This document shows positions 1 to 46,182 of a stretch of 46,182 nucleotides of DNA, piece after piece. The stretch spans positions 1 through 46,182 of IMG/VR virus record IMGVR_UViG_3300044840_000111; one strand, given 5' to 3'. Under the pieces are notes generated by a model. It saw only the letters and a program-made list of their open reading frames with translations, had not been told where the DNA came from and did no database searches. Source of the stretch: a virus. Taxonomy: Duplodnaviria; Caudoviricetes. The first letter of the stretch is position 1. Every line of letters starts with the position of its first letter. Made by a program: the position numbers and the translations under genes.

Positions 1-1143
1 ATGTCGAAGGTAGCCTTCACAGATTTATCGGTACGCAGCCTCAAACCGGGCACGTACTTCGACACCAAGACGCCGGCGTTCGGGCTGCGGGTCGGCAAGC
101 ACCGCCGCACGTGGATCGTTCTCAAGGGCGTACACAGCACCAAATTGAAGCTGGGGCATTATCCCGCGCTGCCCCTCGCAGACGCCCGCAAGCAGGCTCT
201 CATTGCCCTCGGCAGTCCCTACGCTCCGAAGGCCACGAGCCTGACCTTCGAGGCCGCCGCTCCTCTCTTTTTGGAGGAGAACTACAAGGGCAAGAAGGAG
301 CGGTCCAAATCCGAGGCCAAGCGCCTCTTGGCTAAGTTTCCTGCGCTTCAAAAGAAGCCGCTACCCGACATCACCGACGACGATATCAAACGACAGCTCG
401 ACACGCTCGCCCGCACCCCGAGCGAGCAGCTACACGCCTTCCGCGCTCATAGGACGTTCCTGCGATGGTGTACCCGCCCACCACATCGGTACATCAAGCA
501 CAGCCCGCTTGAGGGCTACGCGCCCCCAGGCGAGGACAGGAAGGGCGACCGCATCTTGAGCGACCGAGAACTGGCGAAAGTCTGGTTTGCTTGTCAGGGC
601 CAATTCGGCGCGATGATACGGCTGCTCATCTTGTGGGGCACCCGCAACGGCGAGACCGCCCGCCTTAAGCGCACATGGGTTGATGAGGACTTACTGACCA
701 TCCCCGGCAAGTTCACGAAGAACGGCCGGTCCCACTCAATCCCCCTGTTCCCGATGGCGCGGGCAATTCTCGCCGAGCAGCCGGAAGAAGGCGACTATTT
801 CTTCACGGGCAACGTAGGACCGTACAGCCATTTCAATGACGGCTCATGGGGCAAGCTCAAGCAAGAACTCGACAAGGCTTCCGGCGTCACCGGCTGGCAG
901 GTGAGAGACCTGCGCCGCACCTTCCGGTCGAACATGGCTAAACTTCGCGTGCCGAGAGAGGTTTGCGAAATCCTTCTCAACCACGTCACGGGTGGCGGTA
1001 AAACCGAACTTGACGAAATTTATGACCGCTACGACTACTTGCCCGAGAAGCGGGAAGCCCTCGCTAAATGGGAGCAGCGTCTAAAGGTTATTTTGGCTGT
1101 TGGAGGCGCTATGGAGCACCATGCACAGCTTGCGGCTGCGTAG
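1..1143 (+). CDS. int: Tyrosine integrase with N-terminal arm-binding domain
   Basis: N-terminal D..TPAFGLRVG...TW arm-binding motif; catalytic motifs GTRNGE, TKN, RDLRRT, LLNH and IYDRYDY. Confidence 0.93.
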   Translation: MSKVAFTDLSVRSLKPGTYFDTKTPAFGLRVGKHRRTWIVLKGVHSTKLKLGHYPALPLADARKQALIALGSPYAPKATSLTFEAAAPLFLEENYKGKKERSKSEAKRLLAKFPALQKKPLPDITDDDIKRQLDTLARTPSEQLHAFRAHRTFLRWCTRPPHRYIKHSPLEGYAPPGEDRKGDRILSDRELAKVWFACQGQFGAMIRLLILWGTRNGETARLKRTWVDEDLLTIPGKFTKNGRSHSIPLFPMARAILAEQPEEGDYFFTGNVGPYSHFNDGSWGKLKQELDKASGVTGWQVRDLRRTFRSNMAKLRVPREVCEILLNHVTGGGKTELDEIYDRYDYLPEKREALAKWEQRLKVILAVGGAMEHHAQLAAA

Positions 1144-1233
1144 GAGTCCGCATAGTCTCTCATAGCAGCCATTCGGCTGCACTACCGGTGGTCTACCGGG
1201 CGTTGCGCAACGCTCCATCAAGGAGCATTCGCA

Positions 1234-1470
1234 ATGTCTAACAAGCCGCTGATAGTAGACTGGAAGGGCCTAAAGAAACTTGGCTGGCCGTACTCACGCG
1301 CTCATACGTGGCGCATGATGTTTGACGAGACCTATGGCGAAAATCGGTTTCCCCGATGTCGCAAGCTCGGCAAGGATCGTAATGCTCACCCCGTGTGGCG
1401 CATGTTGGACGTGCTGGCCTATTTGAAGACCCACGGTCTCGACGTGACTGAAGACTGGAATACTCCGTAA
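1234..1470 (+). CDS. xis: AlpA-like excisionase / winged-helix DNA-binding protein
   Basis: YSRAHTWRM...FP...KLG....PVW pattern; follows the integrase; SD AAGGAG at 1220-1225. Confidence 0.75.
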   Translation: MSNKPLIVDWKGLKKLGWPYSRAHTWRMMFDETYGENRFPRCRKLGKDRNAHPVWRMLDVLAYLKTHGLDVTEDWNTP

Positions 1471-1476
1471 GGAGCG

Positions 1477-1513
1477 GGGGCGGCTGAGGTGCACACTTGG
1501 TCGCCCCTTTTTT
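1477..1513 (+). terminator. Intrinsic terminator after xis
   Basis: Stem GGGGCGGCTGAG / CTTGGTCGCCCC followed by T6. Confidence 0.7.
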
Positions 1514-1524
1514 ATAGGACGGTC

Positions 1525-1872
1525 ATGCGCATCACCATTGAGCACAAGGAAGAGACCAAGGGTTTTATCTTCAAAAACCCTTCATACGTTGTACTCCTGA
1601 CGATTGTCTTTTCCGAAGAAGAGCTTGCAATAATCAAGCACAGAAAATTGAAAGACTATCCTCTTTACTCCTACGACATGTTCGAGGACGGCGAAATTGT
1701 AGGTCTTCCGATTGGGTTGTTCAAAGACGGTCGGCCATCCGTTCGATCCTTCGACAATTTAGTAAACGCTAAGGCGTTCGAAACTGAATTGAAGGAGAAG
1801 CACCTTCCCGCGTTAAAAGCTCTTCTTGATGCAAGCCGAGAACTGGGAAAAACGGATACGTTCGAGCTTTGA
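1525..1872 (+). CDS. Hypothetical protein, paralogue A (FSEEELAIIKHR family)
   Basis: ATG 1525 with AGGA SD; N-terminus MRITIEH aligns with the next gene. Confidence 0.75.
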   Translation: MRITIEHKEETKGFIFKNPSYVVLLTIVFSEEELAIIKHRKLKDYPLYSYDMFEDGEIVGLPIGLFKDGRPSVRSFDNLVNAKAFETELKEKHLPALKALLDASRELGKTDTFEL

Positions 1873-1885
1873 TTAGGAAAACGCC

Positions 1886-2284
1886 ATGCGCGTTACCATC
1901 GAACATGTGGAAACGAAGGAGATCATCACTCCATCTCTATTCGCGAGCAAGAAGCCTGTCTATCGGGTCAACGTTGGGATCGTCTTCTCAGAGGAAGAGC
2001 TAGCGATTATCAAGCACCGCAACCTGTCGAAGACCGGAGTTAATCTGCCGCCGAACAAGATATTCAGCAGTCTCGCCAACGGCGACGAAAAACGAGTCGC
2101 CCGCGTTTCGTTTGTGGATATTGAACGCATCCATAAAAACGGTGGAGTATCAGAAGCATTTCAGACAATTCCCGAGGCACAAGATTTTGAGAAACATGTG
2201 AGAGACAAGTTCCTCCCCACGCTCAAGAGCCTGATTTTCGATACGGCGGATTATGGCAAGCCATCGGAGCCGTTCGAGGTTTGA
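1886..2284 (+). CDS. Hypothetical protein, paralogue B
   Basis: AGGA SD; shares MR.TIEH.E, IVFSEEELAIIKHR and FE....K.LP.LK.L with 1525..1872; stop overlaps the next start. Confidence 0.78.
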   Translation: MRVTIEHVETKEIITPSLFASKKPVYRVNVGIVFSEEELAIIKHRNLSKTGVNLPPNKIFSSLANGDEKRVARVSFVDIERIHKNGGVSEAFQTIPEAQDFEKHVRDKFLPTLKSLIFDTADYGKPSEPFEV

Positions 2285-4209
2285 TGGAAGATTTATACAA
2301 ACACGCGAAGCTAGTTCTGGCTCGGAAGAACGTCCCGTTGCCGACTGAGTATCTAAAAATCATACAAAAAGTGCTTTTGGCTGAACGTTCAATTGGCAAT
2401 TGTCCTGTCACACCCGTTTATGTTGGATTTGTTGTGGCTGCGGTCTTGCTCTATCGCCGAGAACACTTCGACTACATCACGCCACCGCCAGAATTTGCGG
2501 ACCCAATTGAAGTTGCGCGCTACCGAGACCTCATAAAAAAGGAGATTCAGAGGCTTGAAGTTGTGGAAGAGCTAATTGCTGCCTTCACAGCAGAAATGGT
2601 CCAGCTTTTCAGCGATTTCACTGATGGTTTACCGCTCATCGCAATCCAGACTTCCGCTCCTAAAGAGGAAGCATCAACGACTGTCCCGTTGATTGATGTG
2701 ATCGATGTACGAGAGACGGTCGCTACGTTGATGCGACCGTTTATACAAAAGCGACCTGATATTTTCGAATCTATGCAAGAAGTTTTGCTAGTTAACTATA
2801 TGGAAGCGACCGGCATCCGCAGTTTTGCAGACTACAAGGGTGGAAAACTGATCGGCCCTCGCGAGTTCAAAGGGACGCCCGCGCAAATCGCAAACGCCTA
2901 TCTTAAGAACACTCCATTTGATGAAATCCTCGACGTTCAAATTCCTTTTTCAATTCCCCAGGAGACGCGCTTTAGCGGACATTGGATCATCGCACCGCCT
3001 GGACGCGGCAAGACGACACTCTTGCACCATATGTTTCTTGAAGACCTTCCGCGAGACGCATCCATTATCGTGATGGACAGCAAGGGCGACCTCATCAATC
3101 CCATTAAAGAGCTTAAGGCTGTACAAGACAGGCTTGTACTCATCGAGCCGGACGCGGATTTTCCTCTCGCCCTCAACCCGCTCGACATCCCGAGTTCCGA
3201 CATTGAGCACACCATCGCGCTTATCGAGTACGTGTTCAGCTCTCTTTTGGATGCGAAATTCACGCCGCTACAGATGACGCTTTTTCGGCATGTCCTGCCA
3301 GCAATCATCCAGTGCATCCCCAATCCTACTCTCACTCATTTCCGGGACATCATTGCGAGCGGGCCGAAGAAGTACGGCAACTATTTCAGCAACCTCGACC
3401 CAGAGCTTCAAGAGTTCTTTGATACGCAGTTCGATTCCGAGACGTACAAAGGAACGCGGACACAGCTCATATGGCGGCTCGACTTCCTGCGGACGAACCG
3501 ATTGATGCGAGCGATGTTCGACGCCCCTAAGACCAAACTTGACCTCGGAAAGGAAATGGACGCCGGGAAGATTATCGTCATCAACAACTCGAAAGCACTT
3601 CTAGGAGAAGAAGGTGCTGAGTTTTTCGGGCGGTTCTTTATCGCACTTGTTCTGTCGGCGGCGCAGCAACGCTCCGGTAGACGGCCCGCCGACAAGCTGC
3701 CCTGCTATTTCTACATCGACGAGTGCCAGAACGTCATCAAACAGGACGAGAAGGTCCCAACCATCCTTGACGAGTGCCGCTCGCAGAAGATCGGCCTCAT
3801 CCTGGCTCATCAGAGAACAGCCCAGATAATCTCAGCGAATGTCCTCAGCGCCCTATCGAACTGCGCTATCCGCATGGCGAACAGCGATGAGGAGGCAAAG
3901 AAGCTCGCGCCAGACCTACGAACCACACCTGAGTTCTTACAGAGCCTTCCCGTTGGAAAGTTTGCTGCATACGTCCGTGACTACACGCAACACGCTCTTG
4001 CCCTCGACATTCCGTACCACGACATGCGCAAGCTGCCACGGATGACTGCCGGAGAGCAGAGTGCGCTACGGGAAAAGATGCGCGTTCAGTATGCGAATCC
4101 CAAAGCATTGCCAGCACCACGAGCAGAGCCGCAGGAAGCGCAGCCCAGGCAACCCCAGCCGCGGCATCCACAGGACGAAGACCTAACCAAGCCAAAAAAG
4201 GGTTGGTAG
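2281..4209 (+). CDS. Type IV coupling protein-like ATPase (VirD4/TraD/TrwB family)
   Basis: GHWIIAPPGRGKTT Walker A, IIVMDSKGD, LNPL, YFYIDECQN Walker B and LILAHQ motif; Pro/Gln-rich tail. Confidence 0.85.
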   Translation: MMEDLYKHAKLVLARKNVPLPTEYLKIIQKVLLAERSIGNCPVTPVYVGFVVAAVLLYRREHFDYITPPPEFADPIEVARYRDLIKKEIQRLEVVEELIAAFTAEMVQLFSDFTDGLPLIAIQTSAPKEEASTTVPLIDVIDVRETVATLMRPFIQKRPDIFESMQEVLLVNYMEATGIRSFADYKGGKLIGPREFKGTPAQIANAYLKNTPFDEILDVQIPFSIPQETRFSGHWIIAPPGRGKTTLLHHMFLEDLPRDASIIVMDSKGDLINPIKELKAVQDRLVLIEPDADFPLALNPLDIPSSDIEHTIALIEYVFSSLLDAKFTPLQMTLFRHVLPAIIQCIPNPTLTHFRDIIASGPKKYGNYFSNLDPELQEFFDTQFDSETYKGTRTQLIWRLDFLRTNRLMRAMFDAPKTKLDLGKEMDAGKIIVINNSKALLGEEGAEFFGRFFIALVLSAAQQRSGRRPADKLPCYFYIDECQNVIKQDEKVPTILDECRSQKIGLILAHQRTAQIISANVLSALSNCAIRMANSDEEAKKLAPDLRTTPEFLQSLPVGKFAAYVRDYTQHALALDIPYHDMRKLPRMTAGEQSALREKMRVQYANPKALPAPRAEPQEAQPRQPQPRHPQDEDLTKPKKGW

Positions 4210-4305: not shown

Positions 4306-5217
4306 ATGGGCAAATTTTCCAACGCCGCCTTAAAAAACCCAGTCACAAAGAAGCCGTGGCACTTCGACCCTGAGAAGGGCACGAATCCTGACGTACTCCA
4401 TCACTTCGCTCGCTTCGGGATGCTTGGCTTCAAAGAGCTTAACCTGCTTCTGCCTCACCATGACCGTCACATCTACCGGACAATCCAGCTTGCGAAGGCC
4501 GATAACGCTCGTTTCATAAAACTGTCCGACTGGCAGGAGCGGCATAAGAGCCAACTTTGGAGCACAGACCTGTTCTACCAGCTCACCCCAGCCGGACAGA
4601 TAATCAACACCAAGCACGCAGTACCCGACTACGAACCCCTTGCAGGCTCAGACTTCGACCACCGGGCTATGTCTGTTCGCTGGATGGTTTCGCTCTGTGC
4701 CGGTGTAGCAGCGGATACCCGCAAACGCTTTATCGAGTGGCCGGAGATTCGCGCACGCCTCAACGGAAGCCCTGCTATCGAGGTGGGAGGCAAGCGCATC
4801 AACACTGACTGGCGACCGTTCGGACTTCAGAACATTTCAGAAGATACCTTCCAGTTTTCGAGAGGGCCGGAGATCGACTGCGGCACAGAGCAGTTCTCTT
4901 ACTCTCATAAGAAATCCAGCACCATCGACAACAAGCTCCTGGCTCACGCTGCCGTCGCGCAACAAGGCTTGTTCAATTCGGAGCTGGGGTTGCTTAACGA
5001 CTTCATCCCGTTCGTCACAGTGAATGCCGACCGCAAGGAAACGATGAAGGCGCATCTCGCGCAATTCGTGAGGGAAGGGCAGATCTCCAAACGCGCCGCC
5101 TCAACCATCGGCTTCGCTGTTTTCCCTTACTACGGCTCAAAGGAGCCCCTTGATACCCGCGCCTACACCATGCCGTATGAACGTGTCGGCCATCATGATT
5201 TCTATTTCAATGCATAA
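4306..5217 (+). CDS. Replication-relaxation (Replic_Relax-like) relaxase/nuclease
   Basis: HTH-like N-terminus ending YQLTPAG, conserved H in FDHRAM, EIDCGTE motif; directly downstream of the coupling protein; TATAAT at about 4213. Confidence 0.7.
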   Translation: MGKFSNAALKNPVTKKPWHFDPEKGTNPDVLHHFARFGMLGFKELNLLLPHHDRHIYRTIQLAKADNARFIKLSDWQERHKSQLWSTDLFYQLTPAGQIINTKHAVPDYEPLAGSDFDHRAMSVRWMVSLCAGVAADTRKRFIEWPEIRARLNGSPAIEVGGKRINTDWRPFGLQNISEDTFQFSRGPEIDCGTEQFSYSHKKSSTIDNKLLAHAAVAQQGLFNSELGLLNDFIPFVTVNADRKETMKAHLAQFVREGQISKRAASTIGFAVFPYYGSKEPLDTRAYTMPYERVGHHDFYFNA

Positions 5218-5911: not shown

Positions 5912-6169
5912 CTAGTCTTCAACGACCTCTTCCTGTTCCGCGAAGGGCGGAACGAGGACGAGCGCGCCTTTGAAGTTTGCGGTGTCGATGGGCCAGGTGT
6001 TCAGCTTGATTGTGAAGCCTTCCGCGCCGTTCTTTCGCGGAAAACACACTCCCACGGGGCTCCAGTCACGCGGACCGGGACCCGTTTTGGCGCGAACGTA
6101 AAACGCTATTTCGCGCTTCTCGGGCTGTACACCGCGCCTCGTCGAGCGCGTGTCGGTTTCGGTAGTCAT
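5912..6169 (-). CDS. Small phage protein, possibly ssDNA-binding (W..VG..F..KNG..GF.I.L type)
   Basis: GAGG SD, acidic C-terminal tail, motif resembling small alphaproteobacterial phage proteins. Confidence 0.65.
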   Translation of the reverse strand: MTTETDTRSTRRGVQPEKREIAFYVRAKTGPGPRDWSPVGVCFPRKNGAEGFTIKLNTWPIDTANFKGALVLVPPFAEQEEVVED

Positions 6170-6423: not shown

Positions 6424-7011
6424 ATGGCCGGCAAAGATTTCATCGACTTCGCCCAACTTAAGGAAAAGGTGAGTATCGCTCAGTGCGTCCAAATGCTCGA
6501 CCTTCACATGAAGGGCAATGACCAACTCCGCTCAGCGTGTCCACAATGCCGGGCGGGAGGAGAACGGGCACTCGCCGTCAATGTGTCAAAGGGCTCGTAT
6601 TATTGTTTTTCGGACGGCAAGGGCGGGGACCAAATTGCCCTCGTTGCTCACGTCCGAGGAGCGAGCCAACGCGAAGCAGCGCAAGAAATGGCCGAGCACT
6701 TCCGCATTTCAACGCCCAAGCAGGAAGAACCTGCAAAGGCGTCGGCAGTAGAAGGCGGCATGAAAGCTCTGGACTACCTTGAGCACTCCCACGACGCCGT
6801 AGCCGTCCTCGGCTTCGACGCTGAGACCGCAAAGGCGCTCGGCATAGGATTTGCCGGGAAAGGATTGATGCGCGGGACCGTTGCCGTTCCTATTCGTCTC
6901 GAAGACGGAACACTTGCCGGCTACATCGGCCTCACTGAAATCGAAAAGCTGCCGCCTAAATGGCAACTACCGATCGACAACGTGGTGCCTATCCCAAAGC
7001 GGAAGGCTTGA
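6424..7011 (+). CDS. CHC2 zinc-finger (primase N-terminal-like) protein without TOPRIM domain
   Basis: CPQC...YYCF..GKGGDQI.LV; VAVPIR..DG.LAGYIG; strong SD AAGGAG. Confidence 0.82.
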   Translation: MAGKDFIDFAQLKEKVSIAQCVQMLDLHMKGNDQLRSACPQCRAGGERALAVNVSKGSYYCFSDGKGGDQIALVAHVRGASQREAAQEMAEHFRISTPKQEEPAKASAVEGGMKALDYLEHSHDAVAVLGFDAETAKALGIGFAGKGLMRGTVAVPIRLEDGTLAGYIGLTEIEKLPPKWQLPIDNVVPIPKRKA

Positions 7012-7297: not shown

Positions 7298-7567
7298 ATG
7301 GACAAGGCGAACATCATCCAGCTTAACGACTTATTACGAACTGAATTTAAAGGTGGCGTTGTCTTGATGACGCCGACGGTCTACGAGCTTCCATCTCAAA
7401 TGCGCGGACGGGCGCTCTATCGCATGAGCCAAGCCGCACACTTCACGATGGACGATCACAGTGAGGGCGTCTTTGAATACGCGGACTGTCTCTTTCATTG
7501 GCGCATCGGCGTGTTCGCTGGTCAGCGTTCAATCACGCTGGCGATAGGATGCGAGCTGTACAAGTAG
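7298..7567 (+). CDS. DUF3768-like protein
   Basis: I.QLND.LRT.FKGG.V.MT pattern; ATG 7298 preferred over the upstream GTG. Confidence 0.6.
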   Translation: MDKANIIQLNDLLRTEFKGGVVLMTPTVYELPSQMRGRALYRMSQAAHFTMDDHSEGVFEYADCLFHWRIGVFAGQRSITLAIGCELYK

Positions 7568-7628
7568 CCGCCGTTATCCCCATGTGCATCGCATTTTAAC
7601 ATTAAGCTGCGTGATACAATGATTGCAT

Positions 7629-8195
7629 ATGAGAGGAATCAAGGCCGGTTATCCCAAAGAAGCCCTATGTGAAACTTGCCTGCTTCCTTATTTCGCAAAA
7701 ATCCCTACCGCAAAATTCTGCAACAAGAATTGTCGTTATCAAGCGGATAGACAGAAAATTCGCACCCGCCTGCGAACAGTTTTTCACAGCATCCTTGCTC
7801 GCTGCACCAAACCGACAGCAAAGGGTTACGATAGATACGGAGGAAGAGGCATTCGATGTGAATGGACCTCGCTTGACCAATTTGTGAATGACATGGCCGC
7901 CAGTTATCGCCTGGCCTCTTCAAACGTAGGCAGCCGAAATATTCAATTAGACCGACGCGACAACAACAGGAACTACTCTAAGCGCAACTGCCATTGGGTA
8001 ACGGCACGCCAGAACTCGCGCAATCGACGAGATAATGTCCTCATCGCATGGCACGGAAAAACAAAGACACTTGCTGAATGGGCAGAGCAAGCCCCTGTGA
8101 AATACATCACGCTGCACTACCGTTTACGTATCGCTAGGTGGTCGATGGACCGAGCGATGACTGTCGCGAATCGGCAGGCAGCGGAGGGGGTATAA
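7629..8195 (+). CDS. HNH-family homing endonuclease-like protein
   Basis: RC......Y.RYGGRGI.C.W and QLDRRDNNRNY...NC.W.T..QN.RN; extended -10 TGATACAAT 8 nt upstream. Confidence 0.85.
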   Translation: MRGIKAGYPKEALCETCLLPYFAKIPTAKFCNKNCRYQADRQKIRTRLRTVFHSILARCTKPTAKGYDRYGGRGIRCEWTSLDQFVNDMAASYRLASSNVGSRNIQLDRRDNNRNYSKRNCHWVTARQNSRNRRDNVLIAWHGKTKTLAEWAEQAPVKYITLHYRLRIARWSMDRAMTVANRQAAEGV

Positions 8196-8272
8196 TTCAG
8201 CGAGGTTCTTCGGTTTCGGAACTGAGCGCGGCTTGTGGACGCGCTCGCCTCCGCAACCGAGGAGAAATAGTG

Positions 8273-8521
8273 ATGTGGAAAAAGTGCACCGAAGAACGCT
8301 ACGATGAAATGCTAAGCATCCTTCCGCCAGCGGTTTATCTGTATCACGGGTTCCTAGTCGGAGAGCCGGCAAGCCATCGAACCTGCACAAAAACAGGTGG
8401 GTTCAGAGCCGACTTCGCAGCATTCGTTCGCGTCGGGGACGAGCATTACGAAGGGCCGAATCTGACCATCCCGGAGTTCCGAGCGCTTGACCTTGAACAG
8501 ATCAGGAAGGAGGCGGTGTGA
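8273..8521 (+). CDS. DUF1419-like protein
   Basis: EERYDEML.ILPP....GFLVGEP motif; SD GAGGAG at 8259-8264. Confidence 0.65.
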   Translation: MWKKCTEERYDEMLSILPPAVYLYHGFLVGEPASHRTCTKTGGFRADFAAFVRVGDEHYEGPNLTIPEFRALDLEQIRKEAV

Positions 8522-8715
8522 TGCTCGACAAGCCGAACGTCATCTCGCTTCCGAGCTACAACGTCGAGAAGCGAGGAGCCTACTGGTATTATTGGCGTGC
8601 ACCGTTCTTTAGCCGTGAGAGTCCGAAGGGACCATACGGCTCCGCAATGAGCGTGTGCATGATGATTGCGCGTGAACTGGTCCAAGAAATAATGGCACCA
8701 CGCCGCAAGAAGTGA
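8518..8715 (+). CDS. Hypothetical protein
   Basis: SD AAGGAGG; overlaps the upstream stop. Confidence 0.65.
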   Translation: MMLDKPNVISLPSYNVEKRGAYWYYWRAPFFSRESPKGPYGSAMSVCMMIARELVQEIMAPRRKK

Positions 8716-9343: not shown

Positions 9344-9955
9344 ATGGTCTACTCCGTTACAAAACGGTGTGCCCAATGCTCCCGTTTGTTCCGTGCCAAT
9401 AGCAACTCCCAGATTTATTGCACACAATGCAAACCTGAAGTCCGTAGAGAAAAGAACAAGGTTTGGCAGCATGACTACTACCTAAAAAATCAAATCCCTA
9501 AGCTCGAAAAGAGCCGCGCATACAACAAGTCTGAGAAGGGACGTGCTGCGCAGCAGCTACGCGATGCAGTCCGACAAGGGAAAGTAACGCGCCGGCCGTG
9601 CGAGATATGTCAAGAGCCTAACGCTCAGGGGCACCATGAGGATTACAGCAAACCGTTAGAGGTACGCTGGCTCTGTCCCAAGCATCACCGCGAAGAACAT
9701 CTATTTGAGCCGTGGCAGAATGAGTTGCGCCGCGCAGGGTACACGGGCGGCTTTCTTCTAGGTCAACTCATCGAGGAGTGCGGGGATGGGTTCAGCGCAT
9801 TAATGAAAATCAGTCCTATTGATTGGAAGGCTGGACGACCGACGGGAGATAACATCAGAGATTACAATTCACCTATTGGTGTTGGATTAACGCCAATCGA
9901 AGCAGTCGCCCGTCTGTGGCTCGCCCTCAACCGCACTGAAGCCGTGAAATCGTAG
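9344..9955 (+). CDS. HNH-like zinc nuclease fused to the C-terminal part of a small phage protein
   Basis: AVR.GK.TR.PCE.C....AQGHHEDYSKPLEVRWLC..HH, then LIEECG...TP.EAVARLWLALN. Confidence 0.8.
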   Translation: MVYSVTKRCAQCSRLFRANSNSQIYCTQCKPEVRREKNKVWQHDYYLKNQIPKLEKSRAYNKSEKGRAAQQLRDAVRQGKVTRRPCEICQEPNAQGHHEDYSKPLEVRWLCPKHHREEHLFEPWQNELRRAGYTGGFLLGQLIEECGDGFSALMKISPIDWKAGRPTGDNIRDYNSPIGVGLTPIEAVARLWLALNRTEAVKS

Positions 9956-12535: not shown

Positions 12536-12594
12536 TCTTGAAGCACTCGATCGGTGGATAACGGAACTGCTGCTGAGCGGAACCACTTCAACTT

Positions 12595-14396: not shown

Positions 14397-14402
14397 TGCC
14401 GT

Positions 14403-14702: not shown

Positions 14703-14705
14703 TTG

Positions 14706-14737: not shown

Positions 14738-14771
14738 AGTGATGAACTCGTTATCAACTAGCAACGTCGCT

Positions 14772-17201: not shown

Positions 17202-17204
17202 CGT

Positions 17205-34332: not shown

Positions 34333-34353
34333 AAGACAATCATCAAACAACTT

Positions 34354-34632: not shown

Positions 34633-34633
34633 T

Positions 34634-34762
34634 ATGGGAACCAAGATACTTGCTGTCGGCCTGATATTGCTCGCCCTCGGAATGCTCGGACTAGGAATCC
34701 CCGCCATCGTGACCGGCATCCTGATCCTCATCGGTGCTATTGGGGTTCTTGTGGGCTACTAG
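34634..34762 (+). CDS. 42-aa membrane peptide
   Basis: T-ATG start 1 nt after the holin stop; entirely hydrophobic. Confidence 0.6.
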   Translation: MGTKILAVGLILLALGMLGLGIPAIVTGILILIGAIGVLVGY

Positions 34763-38034: not shown

Positions 38035-38781
38035 CTACGCAATCGCATCCTGCACGAACTCATTGAACCCGTTTGTCCCGCGAGCCAGCCTCGCATACGC
38101 TGCGAGCATTTCCGCATCTTCCAACGTCGTCCCGCCCGCAACTTTGTCCTCGATCAGCAGCACACTCTGTCGCAATTTCGGCGGCAACTCGCTCAGCGAA
38201 TTTACGCCCGCGATCAGCCGGCCTTCCCGAATCAAACTCACATGCGCTTCCCGGCCGTAGAAGCCGAAGTCCGGTACGACGATCTGCCCCTTGAAGTGTG
38301 CCATCAGGAAGAGACCCAGGACCAGCGAATCGAACTCTCCCAACTCTGCCCGGTTGATCCTCGCGAACACTTTCGTGTTCTTTCCAGTGAATGCAAAATC
38401 GCTGCCCGAGCAGAGAGCACTCCTCAGCACATCCGTGAAAAGCAGCTCGCTTATCATTCCCTCGACTTCTTCCTTCACACCTTTCACATCGCTCCGGACC
38501 CGAATCTCATCGAGCCGTTTCGCTCCCGCCAACGCCTCTGCAAGCGCACGACGCCCATTCCTTACAGTAAGCGTATTTTCGCCCTGGGGTGAGACCGTGT
38601 AGAGCACATCCGCCAGCTCCCGCGCTTTCTTCTTATCGAGCCCCTTGAGCGGATTGAAGCTGTGCTTTAGCGGGTCAAACACTTTCGCCTTTGGATGCCT
38701 CGGCACCTCATCATCAATGAAAAGAAACGAGCCTTTGGGCAACTCGACACTTTTTGAAAATCCGACATATAACTTGTTCAT
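38035..38781 (-). CDS. Degenerate coupling-protein/TraD-like protein
   Basis: LFIDD, FDP.KHSFNPL, A.ELAD.LY and INRAELGE motifs; no Walker A; start taken at MNKLY. Confidence 0.55.
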   Translation of the reverse strand: MNKLYVGFSKSVELPKGSFLFIDDEVPRHPKAKVFDPLKHSFNPLKGLDKKKARELADVLYTVSPQGENTLTVRNGRRALAEALAGAKRLDEIRVRSDVKGVKEEVEGMISELLFTDVLRSALCSGSDFAFTGKNTKVFARINRAELGEFDSLVLGLFLMAHFKGQIVVPDFGFYGREAHVSLIREGRLIAGVNSLSELPPKLRQSVLLIEDKVAGGTTLEDAEMLAAYARLARGTNGFNEFVQDAIA

Positions 38782-40006: not shown

Positions 40007-40225
40007 ATGAAACACGAACTAGACTTCAAACAAGTCGTCGAAGAGATGTCACCCATCACCACCGACGAATTGCGCCGCTACTCATCTGATTCAAAGCGCA
40101 CCCTACAAGCCAAGAAAGACCGCGAGGCCGAGAAGGCTCGCAAGAAGGACGCCGCACGATCAACCAACCCTATCAGCGTCATGCTCATCACGGGATTAAT
40201 CGCATCAACCGCGCTGTATGTTTGA
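40007..40225 (+). CDS. Hypothetical protein with C-terminal TM
   Basis: T-ATG at 40007 after an A/C-rich leader. Confidence 0.6.
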   Translation: MKHELDFKQVVEEMSPITTDELRRYSSDSKRTLQAKKDREAEKARKKDAARSTNPISVMLITGLIASTALYV

Positions 40226-40378
40226 CCCTTTAAGAGGGCAGATTACGGTCCGACCGCTGCCCTACCAGCCACGGCCTGAGAGCCACTGGTTCTCAATCAT
40301 CACCGGACTGAAACCAAAAGACTTCTTACCAGCCCGCCGCAGCAATATGTTCGCGGCTCGCTCTAAACAACATCCCGT

Positions 40379-40582
40379 ATGAACCTCATTGAAAAGAAAG
40401 AACTCACTCAGGAAGAAAGAACCCGCGCAGAAGAGTTCATCATTGAACTTGATTTCCGAAAGACGAAACGCAAAGGCGATGCCGCCTGGAGAGAGATCGA
40501 CCAGATAACCGGACTAGGAGACTACATCCCCGGACAGGACGATGGAGAGCCGCCAGCGGATTACTCTCGCCTAGAAAACTAA
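40379..40582 (+). CDS. Hypothetical protein
   Basis: T-ATG start; early operon. Confidence 0.65.
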   Translation: MNLIEKKELTQEERTRAEEFIIELDFRKTKRKGDAAWREIDQITGLGDYIPGQDDGEPPADYSRLEN

Positions 40583-40593
40583 TCACATCATGT

Positions 40594-41238
40594 ATGGAGA
40601 CATCACTAGAGATTAAGAACATCGCCAAGGCTCTCAAAGAATTTCATGAGCTGACGATTACGATCACCAAGGACGCGACCAACCCGCACTTCCACTCCAA
40701 GTTTGCAAGCCTCGACAACATCATCGAAACCATCCGCATTCCGCTTGCGAGCCGCGGACTTGCATTCTCGCAGTTTCCAGACGGCGACGGCCTTACGACC
40801 ATCCTCTTACACTCACCTTCCGGCGAGTGGATGAAGGCGACCGCCAACTTAAAACTAGCGAAGGAAGATCCCCAAGGACAGGGCAGCGCATACACCTACC
40901 ACCGCCGCTACGCACTGGCCGCAATGCTTGGGCTTGCAACTGAGGATGATGACGACGGCAACGAGGCTTCTAAGGCCCCTGTGACCGCTAAAACTGCTCA
41001 AGGAGGCTCGAAACCCGCCGCTGCGAAGAAGGACGCACCCAGCGAGTTAGACGTGCAGAAGGAGCGTGTATGGTTCCTCTTAAAAGCCCTCGGCATGAAA
41101 GCCAACGCAACGAAAAACGAAGCGACTGCGGCTGTATTCGAGAAGACAAAATTACATCTCACCGACGAAAATCTCCCTGCGATAGCCGAAACGCTGGCGG
41201 CGCAATTAGAAGCTAAGGAGGCAGCAGCCGAACAATAA
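40594..41238 (+). CDS. erf: ERF-family ssDNA annealing protein
   Basis: KDATNPHF.SKFASL, LLH.SGEW, PQGQGSAYTY.RRYAL.A.LG...EDDDGN. Confidence 0.92.
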   Translation: METSLEIKNIAKALKEFHELTITITKDATNPHFHSKFASLDNIIETIRIPLASRGLAFSQFPDGDGLTTILLHSPSGEWMKATANLKLAKEDPQGQGSAYTYHRRYALAAMLGLATEDDDDGNEASKAPVTAKTAQGGSKPAAAKKDAPSELDVQKERVWFLLKALGMKANATKNEATAAVFEKTKLHLTDENLPAIAETLAAQLEAKEAAAEQ

Positions 41239-41239
41239 T

Positions 41240-41401
41240 ATGGCCGACTTCGACTTCGCAGAAATGCTTAAACAGATGGAATTCGCCCATCTCTACAAAA
41301 TACATCCGCACTTCGATAAATACCCGAAGTACATGCAAGACGCACTCATCGCCAACGAACGATTACAAGGCAGAATTACAAAGGAAACACCCGCAAAATA
41401 A
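41240..41401 (+). CDS. 53-aa hypothetical protein
   Basis: Manual translation; exactly fills the gap between erf and the next gene; T-ATG start. Confidence 0.6.
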   Translation: MADFDFAEMLKQMEFAHLYKIHPHFDKYPKYMQDALIANERLQGRITKETPAK

Positions 41402-41402
41402 T

Positions 41403-41696
41403 ATGTCTGAACAAATCTTCCCCGAAGGCATGAGACTCTGGCCGCCCCACGAACGGGCTCCACAATTCATAAAAGGAAATCTATCAGTTCACCTCGCAAC
41501 ATTCACTGAATGGGCGCAACAGCATCTAGACGCGAAAGGATTTGTGAAGCTCGACCTCAAAGAAGGCCGTGACGCCAAGCTGTACCTCGCTTTGAACACT
41601 TGGAAAAAGGACGACGCACGGAGCGACACGCAGCACGGCACACACCAAGAGGAAGCGCCGACGGCCGACATTAATCCAGACGACATACCTTTTTGA
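41403..41696 (+). CDS. Single-stranded DNA-binding-like protein
   Basis: Acidic C-terminal DINPDDIPF tail; near erf. Confidence 0.6.
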   Translation: MSEQIFPEGMRLWPPHERAPQFIKGNLSVHLATFTEWAQQHLDAKGFVKLDLKEGRDAKLYLALNTWKKDDARSDTQHGTHQEEAPTADINPDDIPF

Positions 41697-41702
41697 CGAC
41701 AT

Positions 41703-42098
41703 ATGGCCTTCCGCGCGACCATCAAGAACGGAGTGCTTGAATTTCCGACACCCGCCGCAGCGGTCCGCTTCCAGCAGTGGAAACGCGACCACGACGGCCT
41801 CCGCATCATCATTGAAGAGGACAAGCCATCCCGCTCGCATTCTCAAAATGCTTACTACTGGACGTACCTGAGCGTCATAGCGATCGAGACTGGCGACAAC
41901 GCCGACGACTTGCACGAGTTCTTCAAGCGGAAATTGTTGCCGCCTGTCTTCAAGACGATACGCGGGGAGGAAATCAAACTTCCCGCATCGACGACAGACT
42001 TGAGCAAGAACGACTTCACCGAATACCTGGACAGAATCTGTGCGCTTACCAACGTCCCGCTGCCCGATCCAATTGCTGCGGGATATTTACCTCATTAA
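41703..42098 (+). CDS. NinB/Orf-like recombination protein
   Basis: RS.SQNAYYW, LHEFFK, STT.L....F..Y...I. Confidence 0.75.
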   Translation: MAFRATIKNGVLEFPTPAAAVRFQQWKRDHDGLRIIIEEDKPSRSHSQNAYYWTYLSVIAIETGDNADDLHEFFKRKLLPPVFKTIRGEEIKLPASTTDLSKNDFTEYLDRICALTNVPLPDPIAAGYLPH

Positions 42099-42101
42099 CC
42101 T

Positions 42102-42542
42102 ATGACCACTACATGCTGTGAGAAGTGCGCAAATTGGCACGTAACAAAAGGTCTGACCCCAGATAATCAAAATTGTATCTGCCCCTGCCACGAGAAGAAA
42201 TGTTGCGACGCAGGATGCCACGGCGACACTTGCCCTGTTCACGGCTCCCCCCACCAAGAAAGCTGGGAGAAGGAGTTTGATGACCTGTTCACCTACTTCG
42301 GCCCTAACATTATTCGAGACTTGAAATCCTTCATCTCCTCCCTTCTCTCTAAGGCACGGGAGGAAGGAGCGAAAGAAGCACTTGACGAGAAGCCATGGAT
42401 TGATTTTACCGAAATGCGTTTCGCACAAGGTATAAAAGAAGAACGCACCAGGATATTGGCGGCATTAGATAAAAAGTACGAATATGCCAATGACGGCGAA
42501 ACCATCGCTCGTATCCGCTCCCTAATCTCTAAAGGCGTATGA
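42102..42542 (+). CDS. Hypothetical protein with Cys-rich N-terminus
   Basis: CC.KC...C.CPCH; WEKEFD; KSFISSLL. Confidence 0.7.
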   Translation: MTTTCCEKCANWHVTKGLTPDNQNCICPCHEKKCCDAGCHGDTCPVHGSPHQESWEKEFDDLFTYFGPNIIRDLKSFISSLLSKAREEGAKEALDEKPWIDFTEMRFAQGIKEERTRILAALDKKYEYANDGETIARIRSLISKGV

Positions 42543-42994
42543 CGCTTCAGACCTGCCGCTTATGCCTAAAGAAAAAACAACTTGAAACAGAATTCTACCG
42601 TAGCCGCTCAAACAGAACCGGCTTCGACAAACGTTGCAAAGAATGTCACGCCGCCACTTCACGTCTCAGGAAGCGCATTACTTATAACCTTGAGAAAAAA
42701 CGGCAGAACCGTCGCAAACTGATTATTGAAAATCCGAACTACTACACCGATCGAGCAAGAAGGGAACGCGCGAGCAACCCTCTTAAATACAGGGCACGTT
42801 ACACATTACAAAACGCCGTCAGAGATGGTCGAGTAACGAGGAAGCCTTGCATTAAATGCGGCAACAGAAAATCCCAAGGCCATCACAACGACTATTCTAA
42901 GCCGCTACACGTCTTATGGTTATGCTCGCGGCATCACGGGCAGCACCATCGCAAGCCGGACCTCGTTAACAAATTAAAGGAAGAGGAGGTATGA
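42539..42994 (+). CDS. HNH-like zinc nuclease
   Basis: C..C...K....FY...CKEC; AVRDG...RKPC..CG....QGHH.DYSKPL.V.WLC..HH. Confidence 0.82.
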   Translation: MTLQTCRLCLKKKQLETEFYRSRSNRTGFDKRCKECHAATSRLRKRITYNLEKKRQNRRKLIIENPNYYTDRARRERASNPLKYRARYTLQNAVRDGRVTRKPCIKCGNRKSQGHHNDYSKPLHVLWLCSRHHGQHHRKPDLVNKLKEEEV

Positions 42995-43143
42995 GCTACG
43001 CCCTAATGCACAACAACAAAGGAGAATGGTGGGTGGTTGAACCACAGGGTGGAAATCGCCCAGATAAACTCGTGTATCTTCTAAAAGCCACTTCACACCA
43101 ACAAGCGAAAAGAGAGGCCCGTAAACTTCGATATAACGTATGA
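42991..43143 (+). CDS. 50-aa hypothetical protein
   Basis: Manual translation MSYALMHNNKGEWWVVE...; ATGA overlaps at both ends. Confidence 0.55.
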   Translation: MSYALMHNNKGEWWVVEPQGGNRPDKLVYLLKATSHQQAKREARKLRYNV

Positions 43144-43216
43144 TCCACATCGAACAAGCAATCAAAGAGGCGGTGGAGAAGATTGCGGCTTTCCCTAAAC
43201 GCGATATCATTAGGCA

Positions 43217-43726
43217 GTGGTTCCGTGGAATAAAGGAAAACGTATTGCGCCAATACGAAAATGTGAGGCTTGCCCGACTTCTAACCGACGTATATTCCAG
43301 CACAACGGGCACGTCGTCTGCGACCGCCACTACCACCACCTTCGACGCCACGGCCGTATCCTCAGCGATACAGAAGCTCGCAGCAGACTCAGAACATCTC
43401 AGTCAAAGTGGGTTGGCCGCCGACCTTGGAATTACAAGGGAGGGCGTGCAACGCTTAATATGGCTGTGCGCCGATGCGCAAGATACAAGCAATGGGTCAA
43501 AGACATATTCCGAAGAGACGATTACACGTGTCAAAAATGCTCTGTACGCGGAGCGTATCTTGAAGCAGACCACTTTCCGGTTCGCTTCGCCACAATCATT
43601 GATGAAGAACGAATTACTACCTACGAAGCAGCAATGGCGTGTGAACGGCTATGGGATATCGCCAACGGTCGCACGCTCTGTCGTAAATGCCATCGCAACA
43701 TAACAATATATGCCACACTTAACTAA
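43217..43726 (+). CDS. HNH endonuclease with NUMOD-like PWNKG repeats
   Basis: PWNKG, PWNYKGG, W...IF.RDDYTCQ.C, LEADH, WDI.NGRTLC..CH; start codon uncertain. Confidence 0.82.
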   Translation: MVPWNKGKRIAPIRKCEACPTSNRRIFQHNGHVVCDRHYHHLRRHGRILSDTEARSRLRTSQSKWVGRRPWNYKGGRATLNMAVRRCARYKQWVKDIFRRDDYTCQKCSVRGAYLEADHFPVRFATIIDEERITTYEAAMACERLWDIANGRTLCRKCHRNITIYATLN

Positions 43727-44057
43727 AGCAATTGACGACGCTCTCGCTCACGGATGGGAGCGCAAACAGCCCAAATTCGTTCTCAACACCACCGTCATAT
43801 CCAACCCCGACCTTCTTGACCCTGCATTTTTCCAAGCACTCGGTAAGGCGCGGGGGTGGTACAACTCTTATCACGAAACTCCGCCGCACGAATTAGAAAT
43901 GCCCATGTGCTGGTGTGGCGCGACAAATGAGGGTGTGAACGGAGAACTTCTCACGGTACATCAAGACCGCACTTGGCGCGGGGCTTGGCACCGCTTCATC
44001 GACCACCTCGCAGAGGGGAAGACCGCTGAGGAATTCTTTAGCGGCCTAACGAATTGA
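43710..44057 (+). CDS. Phage hypothetical protein
   Basis: LLDP.FFQALGKA.GW ... WHRFIDHLAEGK..E.FF motifs. Confidence 0.75.
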   Translation: MPHLTKAIDDALAHGWERKQPKFVLNTTVISNPDLLDPAFFQALGKARGWYNSYHETPPHELEMPMCWCGATNEGVNGELLTVHQDRTWRGAWHRFIDHLAEGKTAEEFFSGLTN

Positions 44058-44060
44058 TTT

Positions 44061-44330
44061 ATGGAGTTGACCAACCAACAGCGCAAAGTCGCCAACTACA
44101 TCTTCCGACACCGCGGCTGCACCACAAAAGACATTCAGAGAGACACTGGAATAACGTGCCCGAGCGGTCGCATCACTGAAATCAGACAGGCCGGAATAAA
44201 CATCTTCAGCATCGGCAAAAAGAAATACGCAGGCTCAAAAGCGTTTGAGTGTTATGCCATTGAGGTGCCGTCAGCTAAAGCACCTGATCGCATACTCGCC
44301 GAACCGCTCCTTGAGCATAATTACCATTAG
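44061..44330 (+). CDS. Winged-helix DNA-binding protein
   Basis: Q...V..Y......T..DI.....I.CPSGRI.EIR..G. Confidence 0.72.
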   Translation: MELTNQQRKVANYIFRHRGCTTKDIQRDTGITCPSGRITEIRQAGINIFSIGKKKYAGSKAFECYAIEVPSAKAPDRILAEPLLEHNYH

Positions 44331-44340
44331 CAATGACCGT

Positions 44341-44511
44341 ATGAACACCGAGAAGGTAAATCGCGTTGAAGTAATAGACCACACCAAATCTCTAGAAGAC
44401 GGGGGTGGCCGCGCTTATGTGTTTTGGGAGAAAACGGCCAAGGTTGAACTACAGCTACAAGACGACGGCCGCACCCTTAAAATCTTTATCAGCTCAGTCG
44501 TCAATCACTAG
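44341..44511 (+). CDS. Small phage protein
   Basis: V.RVEVIDH...GRAYV......VELQLQDDGRTLKIF; T-ATG at 44341. Confidence 0.7.
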   Translation: MNTEKVNRVEVIDHTKSLEDGGGRAYVFWEKTAKVELQLQDDGRTLKIFISSVVNH

Positions 44512-44567
44512 GTCGCGCATTCTGTGTTGTGCGACATTCAGAAATTACCATTTAACTCTTCAATATT

Positions 44568-45056
44568 ATGACGAACGACCCATTAGAAGTCCTCCTGAAG
44601 TCACCCGACGAAATAGCGCAGATGCGGAAAAACGGAGAACTGCTACCCGTCCCGTCGCCTCGCATTCCTCTCGATGACAAAAACACAGAGGACATGAGCG
44701 ACGCCGAACTCAATTTGTCTCTCGCAGTCGCTTGCAATGCTAAAGAAATCACCAGCGATGACTTCAAAGAAGCCGTGGGCCAGGATTTTTACTCGTTCTG
44801 GAACGAAAACAATAAAGCTTGTCTTGCTGCTTGGAGAGACAGGGCGGTCCGAGCCAAGCACGAGAAAAAAAGTCCTCTCCACATTCGTTGCCAATTCAGC
44901 AATCAGGGGCTCATAGAGCTACGACAACATGGCCGACAGCGATACGGACATATAATAGGGTACTCCCGAACAGGAGGTGTACACGTCCTTTGGGACGGCC
45001 GGAACGTGCCGCAAACGTATGCAAAGGAATTCATCGCGACTGGTAACGTGGACTGA
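44568..45056 (+). CDS. Hypothetical protein
   Basis: T-ATG start; 162-aa ORF. Confidence 0.6.
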   Translation: MTNDPLEVLLKSPDEIAQMRKNGELLPVPSPRIPLDDKNTEDMSDAELNLSLAVACNAKEITSDDFKEAVGQDFYSFWNENNKACLAAWRDRAVRAKHEKKSPLHIRCQFSNQGLIELRQHGRQRYGHIIGYSRTGGVHVLWDGRNVPQTYAKEFIATGNVD

Positions 45057-45455
45057 TTAACACGTCGCACAATGTATAGTGTTCGACCCTCGCTCACGCT
45101 GTCACAGCTCATTCAAGGGTCTGTTCGCCTCGCAGAAATCAAAAACCAACTGACTCCCTAGAAAGTTCAAACGAAGATTCCCATGTCGTTACACGCTATC
45201 CTGGCCCGGCTCCTTGCTGTTTGATTGACACTCAACAGCCTCGCAGCGGTATTAAATGACCACTCAAGCCGCAAAACCGCTGCTTGAAAAAGAATCTTCA
45301 CGGCATACAAAAGCCGTCTAACCGCCTTCAACCATTGAGAACTTCTGGGGGAGTTGCGCTAAATTGGCACAAACCGTCGGGGAAAACCCTCTGACGGTAG
45401 GGATCTGTTAAACACATTATAGCGAGTATGGCGTGTAACCCAAAAGGAGGACCCT

Positions 45456-45536
45456 TTGAGCTACACGATCATAAAAGCGTTTATCGCCGTCGTATGGGCG
45501 ATAGTTGAGCTGCTCGAAGCCTTCCACAGCGATTAA
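45456..45536 (+). CDS. 26-aa hydrophobic peptide, type I toxin-like (MSYTIIKAFIAVVWAIVELLEAFHSD)
   Basis: Perfect SD AAAGGAGG 5 nt before TTG; followed by a terminator. Confidence 0.55.
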   Translation: MSYTIIKAFIAVVWAIVELLEAFHSD

Positions 45537-45558
45537 GCAGTTCTTCTTTCGTCACAGG

Positions 45559-45592
45559 AAGGGCCTCGGGACACCTCCCGGGGCCTTTTCTT
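45559..45592 (+). terminator. Intrinsic terminator
   Basis: Stem AAGGGCCTCGGGA / TCCCGGGCCTTT followed by a T-rich tail. Confidence 0.7.
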
Positions 45593-45798
45593 GTTATGAA
45601 TCTAGGCCCAGCTTGGTTAACGAATGGTTTCCGCCCCCACGCTGAACGTCATTTTTGGCATACGTTCCGCGCTTTGGTTACCGTTCCCTTCACATTTCCC
45701 CCAGCCCACACAGGGGCAGCGGCGGCCGGTGCGCCGGAGCGGAGCTTGCGGCGGCTGTCCACACCCTCCTTCCCATTCATGTGTTACACTGGGAAGAT

Positions 45799-46182
45799 AT
45801 GGCGTTCGGCTACTTGGGCTTAGAGGAGGCGAAGAAAAGACGACACGCCTACTACGTTAAAAACCGGGTCAAATTTGTCGCTGCCGCTCGCGCTCGACAA
45901 GACATGTTCCGACGGTGGATTCAGGCACAGAAGGAAGCAAGTCCCTGCACCGACTGCCGAGAGTTTTACCCTTTTTACGTCATGGACTACGACCATCGCG
46001 GCGATCACCCAAAGACCTACGGGATTGCACTGTTGTACCGTCGTGCATCGTGGGTGAAAATTAAGGCCGAGATTGCAAAATGCGACCTCGTTTGCTCTAA
46101 CTGTCACCGTATCCGCACTCATAAGCGATTGTCCTGCCAAATTCCTGCCAACGACAATTCTAAAACCGCTTTAAGTGCTTGA
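45799..46182 (+). CDS. HNH endonuclease
   Basis: PCTDC....P.YVMDYDH...K, EIAKCDLVCSNCHRIRT; TGTTACACT 8 nt upstream of ATG 45799. Confidence 0.85.
   Translation: MAFGYLGLEEAKKRRHAYYVKNRVKFVAAARARQDMFRRWIQAQKEASPCTDCREFYPFYVMDYDHRGDHPKTYGIALLYRRASWVKIKAEIAKCDLVCSNCHRIRTHKRLSCQIPANDNSKTALSA

Follow-up and report, generated by a model that had tools for sequence, protein, structure and literature searches.

Alphaproteobacterial prophages with Patescibacteria-type translation starts on their lytic genes: a mosaic family that may divide its life cycle between two bacteria

Introduction

Why would a single phage genome write the starts of its genes in two different ways? The question is raised by the viral record IMGVR_UViG_3300044840_000111 (Duplodnaviria; Caudoviricetes), whose 46,182 nucleotides were analysed as one stretch, called here the window. 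The record is a provirus by IMG/VR class, 94% complete, from a parent contig of 53,743 bp. A preliminary description, made from the sequence alone, had reported Shine-Dalgarno (SD) sites on integration and mobilisation genes and SD-less T-ATG starts on lytic genes, and had proposed that the phage persists in an alphaproteobacterium and replicates in a parasite of that host belonging to the candidate phyla radiation (CPR; Patescibacteria). Here we describe the mosaic family of phages to which the window belongs, which has this double start grammar, and weigh the explanations for it. Lysogeny in an alphaproteobacterium with lytic growth in its Patescibacteria epibiont is, in our judgement, the probable one.

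Two styles of translation start in the window

Starts were curated, an SD site being AGGA, GGAG or GAGG 3–13 nt upstream of the start, and T(-1) denotes a T immediately before it. In the late region (12281–34634), 23 of the 24 starts have T(-1), the exception being gene 14061, as the preliminary description had it, and none has an SD site; here the scaffold-like gene is taken to begin at 14772, in agreement with its orthologue in the chromosomal relative G003, and the count becomes 22 of 24 with the first ATG, 14742. The early region (40007–45799) follows the same pattern, with T(-1) at 16 of 16 starts where fifteen had been counted. One early gene, 42991, combines T(-1) with an SD site, the sole SD site among the 40 late and early starts, 39 of which have T(-1), the CPR-type start context. 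In the background, T precedes 123 of the 567 plus-strand ATGs of the window (22%) and 7 of 92 in-frame internal ATGs, and the excess has a binomial P of about 1e-14. Two trivial origins were rejected: composition, given the 22% background, and a by-product of stop-start overlaps, since TGATG and TAATG leave G or A at -1.

The SD-led genes listed in the preliminary description were all found again (1234, 1525, 1886, 6169 on the minus strand, 6424, 8273, 8518/8521, 36022 on the minus strand with TTG, and 45456 with TTG), and the coupling-protein gene 2284 is to be added to them. The excisionase-like gene, 1525, 1886, 2284, 6169, 6424, 8273 and 8521 are SD-led and lack T(-1). The two styles are therefore real, but the window is not cleanly divided into a left and a right half: T-ATG genes also occur among the SD-led ones of the left arm (the relaxase-like gene 4306, 5340, 7629, 8907, 9344, the resolvase 10478, 10656 and 11129, several of them HNH genes), and genes 7298 and 38781 have neither signal. 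The hexamer TATAAT lies 8–11 nt before the ATG at 8907, 11673, 23327 and 27811, a spacing which suggests that nearly leaderless transcripts may be made inside the late region.

Bacteria and phages that share the T-ATG style

Start contexts of hosts were read from ribosomal-protein operons, with starts fixed by alignment, in Patescibacteria, Bacteroidota and one alphaproteobacterial order. Across 38 Patescibacteria genomes, T(-1) precedes 397 of 717 starts, and it rises to 181 of 240, with SD sites at 25 of 240, in a 13-genome clade that is sister to a Peribacteria-containing one and that we infer, from size and position, to be Parcubacteria. The four genomes of the order of G003 give 2/55 for T(-1) and 35/55 for SD, and the host genes of G003 and of G048, a second genome with the arm, 5/102 by an automatic caller. 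The flanking host consequently does not use SD-less T-ATG starts natively, an explanation that the preliminary description had set as a test of its proposal and that we reject on these counts. Bacteroidota (16 genomes) give 67/282, and six cultured alphaproteobacterial phages 21/165 for T(-1) and 102/165 for SD, counted on selected annotated ATG starts from stretches of 25–30 kb. Within Patescibacteria (loci L044-L079, L084 and L085), T(-1) is strong and clade-structured, reaching 19/19, and is mostly paired with loss of SD. A subgroup of Parcubacteria is described as being without the anti-SD sequence (PMC9297842). Prophages in three SD-less CPR bins share the T-ATG style, and those in three other CPR bins are SD-rich; in one Patescibacteria bin (G479:C1, about 24000–96000) a 36-kb SD-led prophage occurs twice in tandem, by duplication or as an assembly artefact.

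Scored on position matrices, 28 of the 40 lytic starts of the window fit best to high-T CPR genomes, 12 to Bacteroidota and none to alphaproteobacteria, an assignment that is partly circular because the CPR set was chosen for its T. A promoter-like motif, TAnA[AC]T, lies 5–13 nt before the ATG in 25 of 212 genes of the elements and 41 of 592 CPR genes, and in 0 of 199 genes of alphaproteobacterial hosts and phages. The same starts could be read by an SD-independent lytic host other than Patescibacteria, for instance an unsampled single-membrane or symbiotic group. The restriction of the start-context sampling to three groups, the 12 starts that prefer the Bacteroidota matrix and the several phyla with which capsid relatives are binned leave some room for such a host, but T(-1) reaches at most 10/18 in any Bacteroidota genome, against 19/19 in CPR, which makes Bacteroidota a weak candidate as the source of the grammar; the majority of the starts go to the high-T CPR matrix, and the sole named terminase relative is a Pacebacteria metagenome-assembled genome (MAG). 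We therefore hold another lytic host to be improbable.

A mosaic family with one arm and several virion types

Family members were found through a marker gene (38035), the integrase, the capsid or the terminase, and not through start context. Twenty-one records were examined in full (the window, G001, the G003 element, G808-G817, G839, G844-G847 and G849-G851); nine are proviruses by IMG/VR class, four carry terminal repeats (circular), seven are linear and G003 is chromosomal. Most come from a viral collection, so that the presence of virion genes in them is by selection. A metagenome scan with the marker gene gave 134 matches, 80 of which were kept. In a comparison of the first 14 records, 13 of them family members and one, G002, without the arm, the integrase, TraD-like, relaxase-like, CHC2 and marker clusters are each present in 11. 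One shared arm of integrase, coupling protein and relaxase is joined to five separate portal clusters, tape-measure siphovirus and podovirus kinds among them; G001 has an integrase 90% identical to that of the window and no match to its terminase, and G048 has the arm, with no virion genes seen in the 58 kb of it that were covered.

The start style extends to the family, in which 292 of 410 late genes have T(-1) and 13 of 410 an SD site, as counted with a gene caller blind to the -1 base in late regions delimited by eye. The SD-led virion genes expected of an alphaproteobacterial temperate phage are thus absent from the window (0/24) and rare in the family. In 48 orthologue pairs, chosen for T(-1) in the first member, the -1 base is identical in 0.90, versus 0.33–0.52 at positions -2 to -12. 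T(-1) matters wherever the late genes are translated. The dN/dS of virion genes between related members is mostly 0.03–0.29 where it could be computed, with synonymous sites often near saturation, and the members are working phages whose virion genes are under purifying selection.

Capsid relatives without visible arm genes are mostly of 34–51% G+C (GC) content and have the same start style (T(-1) 91/138, SD 6/138). In the capsid tree, the window and G003 group together (support 0.96) and are nested among these arm-less relatives, with weak deeper nodes and no host indicated. The right arm of the G003 prophage has no match to the ERF-type early genes of the window, and two of its genes, for head closure (G003:C15, 347648–349116) and a relaxase-like protein (about 331239–332223), are split by decay or long-read error. 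Early genes run antiparallel to late genes in G844, G847, G851, G839 and G845, and a 21-nt inverted repeat (95%) at 38901–38921 and 45686–45706 flanks the early region of the window; given both, this segment may be invertible.

A chimeric assembly of the window was rejected: contigs of soil DNA runs cover both of its halves at even depth, and G003 independently has the same arrangement. The contigs of the two runs, which are possibly the source of the window itself and hence not independent, break at the resolvase and, in one run, also once in the early region.

Integration in alphaproteobacteria

The preliminary description had called the integrase alphaproteobacterial, which is borne out by its named relatives, mostly Hyphomicrobiales and one labelled only Alphaproteobacteria; the six organism names among the 120 homologues listed of 523 are Beijerinckiaceae, Pseudolabrys, Rhizobiales, Xanthobacteraceae, Alphaproteobacteria and Bradyrhizobium. 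When species genomes were scanned with the capsid alignment, six loci came up, five of them on 2–9.5 kb contigs of mixed MAGs. The sixth and closest (67%), G003, lies on a 700-kb contig of an Alphaproteobacteria MAG, as an element of 47 kb with a perfect 47-bp repeat at either end, at tRNA-Gly(CCC); it is syntenic with the window from integrase through portal and has a GC content of 0.56–0.62, with 0.62–0.69 in the flanks. G816 has an identical tRNA (75/75) and a 50-bp copy of the attachment (att) site, so that site-specific alphaproteobacterial integration with att repeats is found for both relatives, and att pieces of tRNA-Gly(CCC) were seen in G816, G809, G812 and G048. The window itself is cut at gene ends, from the integrase ATG to the stop codon of an HNH gene, and the integrase leader lies beyond its edge; no att repeats or tRNA genes were found within these borders. 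Its target is likely to be tRNA-Gly(CCC), to judge from the relatives.

ARAGORN found tRNAs in 8 of the 34 metagenome loci of at least 9 kb. Nine flank proteins were looked up, and the named members of their clusters are Brevundimonas (L228), Hyphomicrobium (L171) and Alphaproteobacteria (L231). An attP-like form is seen in L183, where 43 nt identical to the 5' end of the L171 tRNA-Pro lie between the integrase and T-ATG early genes. Among 401 genomes of the order of G003, the capsid profile has a strong match only in G003 itself and the integrase occurs at E<1e-90 in two. In G849, the integrase has beside it an entire tRNA-Gly(CCC) (3485–3560; L193) that differs from the alphaproteobacterial copies and has phage genes on both sides.

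A second mark of these hosts is written across the genomes. GANTC is the site of the alphaproteobacterial methylase CcrM, and its observed/expected ratio (O/E) is 0.61 in the window and 0.57 in the family, with 0.54–0.79 in alphaproteobacterial hosts, whose phages are likewise depleted; in the arm-less relatives it is 0.91, not depleted. GANTC depletion shows a long residence of the family in alphaproteobacteria. In G851, G849 and G844 the avoidance is extreme (O/E 0.08–0.22), far stronger than in the hosts.

These data bear on whether the genomes are working phages or dead-end fusions. The latter would arise by repeated recombination between CPR phages and an integrative mobilisable element of alphaproteobacteria, to give hybrids that lodge in alphaproteobacterial chromosomes and are never lytic again. 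Such fusions would account for the arm without virion genes in G048, for five portal types on one arm and for the split genes of the G003 copy. They would not be expected to leave purifying selection on virion genes between integrated members, nor a GANTC imprint on virion genes even in the circular G844 and G851, unlike the arm-less relatives, and attP-like forms exist. As the virion genes carry both the imprint and the selection, the lineage passes through alphaproteobacteria and stays functional, and we rate fusion without further lytic growth slightly lower still than another SD-independent lytic host.

Lysis and lysogeny control

Candidate lysins are M23 peptidases (in 5 of 5 records scanned) or a Cys/His peptidase read from alignment. 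Spanins are normally needed for the lysis of diderm cells, and CPR cells have one membrane. No open reading frame (ORF) with a lipobox, as expected of a lipoprotein spanin, was found in the lysis cassettes of the 21 elements, where non-lipoprotein substitutes are possible; as a control, the same scan gave one ORF beside the lysin in each of the rhizobial phages PBC5 and Lo5R7ANS. We propose that the spanin is lacking because the lysed CPR cell has a single membrane. No CI repressor of the S24 type (PF00717) was found in 10 records, a search by which divergent repressors could be missed, and HTH_3 (PF01381) was matched in one of five records, not in the window.

Evidence for a single host

A number of observations weigh against lytic growth in a Patescibacteria epibiont. 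The codon usage of the late genes correlates at 0.74–0.82 with alphaproteobacterial hosts and phages, at -0.19 to 0.43 with seven of nine CPR samples and at 0.82 and 0.66 with the two GC-rich ones, a likeness that is largely a GC effect; the CPR samples are ribosomal operons. GANTC O/E in the late modules is 0.55, like that of alphaproteobacteria, versus 0.93 in the CPR clade. T(-1) is weaker in G817 (9/19), G847 (13/24) and G845 (8/18); in the circular G817 and G847, C is nearly as common as T at -1, which suggests that these two may form a subgroup with a different lytic host. The flanks named by taxon (L228, L171 and L231) belong to loci with only the arm in view, and those of the window are unseen.

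No close relative integrated in a CPR chromosome turned up in the search of Patescibacteria genomes: matches to the capsid profile occur in 2 of 401, both on short contigs, the 9 of 401 genomes with terminases have them in unrelated prophages, and two other family genes gave one weak match in 121 and one in 101 genomes. The capsid relatives that carry a name or a bin are taxonomically mixed (Patescibacteria, Phycisphaerae, Omnitrophota, Bacteroidales, an archaeon and Lithacetigena), and we know of no alphaproteobacterial host of Parcubacteria. In Caulobacter, 75.4% of genes are reported to start without SD (PMC4117421), and because that bacterium translates mostly SD-less mRNAs, the lack of SD alone would not silence the late genes.

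Several of these points favour a simpler explanation, namely that the family consists of alphaproteobacterial temperate phages whose virion modules were inherited from CPR-type phages and are translated independently of SD, for example through leaders without structure, transcripts that are almost leaderless or processing of the mRNA immediately upstream of the AUG. Wherever the flank of an integrated copy could be read, the copy looks alphaproteobacterial, and the virion genes look so too in GC content, codon usage and GANTC depletion, down to the extreme GANTC values of G851, G849 and G844; Caulobacter starts, according to the same source, are mostly non-SD and many of them leaderless (PMC4117421); and the link to CPR was not found in the Patescibacteria genomes searched. 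GANTC depletion, for its part, fits a two-host cycle with long lysogeny as well as a single-host phage. What a single host does not readily explain is that T(-1) is rare in the hosts (2/55, or 5/102 with automatic gene calling) and in the phages of such hosts (21/165) and is nevertheless retained where synonymous sites are saturated, that the same genomes put SD sites on their arm genes, that a spanin for the outer membrane was not found, and that none of the genes common to all members can be recognised as a factor of translation or RNA processing. On balance we think a single host unlikely, though it is an explanation to be taken seriously.

Other features of the window

The coordinates of the features are collected in Table 1. 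Pfam and PHROGs matches in the window comprise the integrase, TraD-like, CHC2, resolvase, terminase, capsid, SU10-type adaptor and portal genes, and further the tail fibre, holin, ERF and NinB-like genes. No close cultured phage relatives were found, the best matches being at most 36% (terminase) and 27% (capsid). The CHC2 assignment of the preliminary description has a Pfam match in the window and its DUF3768 is recovered through the G003 homologue, with no direct match; AlpA and DUF1419 have no Pfam match in the window, and the motif VGIGTTTP, given in the plural, occurs once, in gene 30600. The family of gene 4306 is Replic_Relax, with a PF13814 match at E<=0.005 in 9 of 10 aligned members, the window copy being without one; a Foldseek search with the model of the window protein gave nothing at E<=0.001, and weak matches to nuclease folds.

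Three smaller loci deserve mention. At 45456–45536, an SD-led, TTG-started ORF encodes a 26-aa hydrophobic peptide and is followed by a hairpin; we take it to resemble type I toxin-like ORFs. The N-terminal motif of the C5 methyltransferase at 37110–37751 starts at an ATC codon after T, with no in-frame ATG upstream, which points to an unusual start or a broken gene. The C-terminus of the endonuclease-like protein at 9344–9955 resembles a small stand-alone family (~100 aa) in five relatives.

Table 1. Features of the window, with positions counted from its first nucleotide
Feature	Position	Strand	Remarks
Tyrosine integrase, alphaproteobacterial type	1..1143	+	Relatives at 56-65% identity sit at tRNA-Gly(CCC)
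Probable excisionase, SD-led	1234..1470	+	From position and homologues; no Pfam match
Two paralogous SD-led ORFs (1525, 1886), function not assigned	1525..2284	+	
TraD/VirD4-like coupling protein, SD-led	2284..4209	+	TraG-D_C, TrwB_AAD_bind
Replic_Relax-family relaxase-like protein, T-ATG start	4306..5217	+	Relaxase call from homologues
Small SD-led arm protein, function not assigned	5912..6169	-	
CHC2 zinc-finger (primase-like) protein, SD-led	6424..7011	+	
DUF3768-like ORF (through homologue), HNH, SD-led ORFs 8273 and 8521	7298..8715	+	
Serine resolvase/invertase, T-ATG start	9927..10478	-	
Probable small terminase (from position) and large terminase	12281..14061	+	Large terminase 74% identical to G003
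Head module: GroES-like, putative scaffold-like (start 14772), decoration protein, small virion ORFs	14061..18264	+	
Major capsid protein	15855-16835	+	Within head module
Podovirus-type neck/tail: SU10 adaptor, head closure, three probable ejection proteins	18271..27622	+	
Tail fibre	21174-23309	+	Within neck/tail module
SU10/P22-like portal	27811..29757	+	TATAAT 11 nt before ATG
Protein with hydrophobic N-terminus, VGIGTTTP and ATS/T-T repeats	30600..32651	+	No family match
Lysis cassette: putative Cys/His peptidase lysin	33418..34762	+	From alignment; no Pfam match
Holin, and 42-aa hydrophobic ORF	34354-34632 (holin)	+	Within lysis cassette
Family marker gene	38035..38781	-	Bait for relatives; TraD/TraG-like by language-model features, a lead only
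Early region: ERF, NinB-like, HTH (helix-turn-helix), HNH genes	40007..46182	+	16/16 starts T-ATG

Discussion

The two-host proposal of the preliminary description has fared unevenly: residence in alphaproteobacteria and the CPR-like grammar stand, two of the refutations that it had set out did not come true, and the tie to a CPR cell, or to a host-parasite pair, was not established. A life cycle split between a host bacterium and its parasite has not yet been shown for any phage; here it is the best explanation, still unproven, and one that we consider somewhat likely. In such a cycle, the SD-led arm would be expressed in the alphaproteobacterium and would serve integration and excision, and the lytic genes would be poorly expressed there, as their promoters and starts fit another cell, a mismatch that would take the place of a CI repressor. 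Virions would be made in the single-membrane CPR cell, which they would lyse. The most speculative step is that the DNA might cross the contact between host and epibiont by means of the relaxase and coupling protein of the phage and a secretion channel supplied by either cell. CPR secretion-system clusters are described as being mostly without a relaxase (bioRxiv 2025.01.22.634366), and it is suggestive, no more, that the phage proteins would complement them. The widest version of the proposal would make these widespread, obligately two-host phages, silent without a repressor in alphaproteobacteria, lytic only in Parcubacteria-like epibionts, crossing the contact with the help of the relaxase, defending the host against its parasite and naming, by their att sites, the hosts of Parcubacteria; taken as a whole, it falls short of being likely, and we put it forward tentatively.

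The closest precedent is Xhp1, which is a mirror image of what we propose for the window. Xhp1 (PMC13578794) is a prophage of Schaalia odontolytica XH001 that binds and weakly infects Nanosynbacter lyticus TM7x; it is thus likewise a prophage in the host bacterium of a CPR organism, with a second, CPR target, and is induced during episymbiosis, but its plaques form on the actinobacterium in which it resides, and in TM7x particles or lysis are seen in only ~1-2% of the cells. By our counts, its late genes are SD-led (23/27) and poor in T(-1) (2/21), and it has an annotated repressor; no match was found between Xhp1 and the proteins of the window by tblastn. Unlike Xhp1, the family of the window has CPR-type signals on its lytic genes, an alphaproteobacterial host, and a relaxase with a coupling protein. 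Spacers of Saccharibacteria, Gracilibacteria and Absconditabacteria that target phages in common with non-CPR bacteria (PMC10746230) are a further genomic hint that the same phage encounters CPR and other bacteria alike, and there too the compatibility of translation is at issue; that work rests on spacers and stop-codon recoding, and the part available describes neither genes with two initiation styles nor integration in Alphaproteobacteria.

Other known systems share parts of the window. Integrative mobilisable elements are defined by a tyrosine integrase, a relaxase of the MOBC type (Replic_Relax) and a coupling protein. The window has this combination without a mating-pore operon, and resembles them in its integrase, xis-like gene, TraD-like and Replic_Relax proteins, tRNA targets and the absence of visible mating-pore genes; it differs from them in that the arm, throughout the family, sits within whole virion and lysis modules that are of several kinds and under selection. 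The rhizobial temperate phages 16-3, PBC5 and Lo5R7ANS have, like the window, an integrase with an arm-binding domain, but their genes are SD-led, and PBC5 and Lo5R7ANS have lipoprotein spanin-like ORFs; SU10/P22-like podoviruses have in common with it the folds of portal, adaptor and closure proteins. In the literature covered, with subscription journals largely outside it and supplements not included, we found no prior description of alphaproteobacterial prophages with CPR-type starts.

The single-host explanation would also call for something undescribed, namely a mechanism of expression and lysis that accommodates avoidance of SD, a kept T(-1) and the absence of spanins. As to method, the signature of T(-1) without SD appears suitable for linking phages with CPR hosts, and host calls made from integrases or flanks can miss the lytic host. 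If lysogeny in an alphaproteobacterium and lytic growth in its Patescibacteria epibiont are indeed the two halves of one cycle, the life of a phage would be divided between two phyla and the division written into its translation signals, with a parallel in the virophage-like protection of hosts from their parasites. Two questions would then become testable: by what means CPR phages survive periods in which their hosts are rare, and which bacteria are the hosts of SD-less, Parcubacteria-like lineages, for which the att sites point to Hyphomicrobiales and Caulobacterales.

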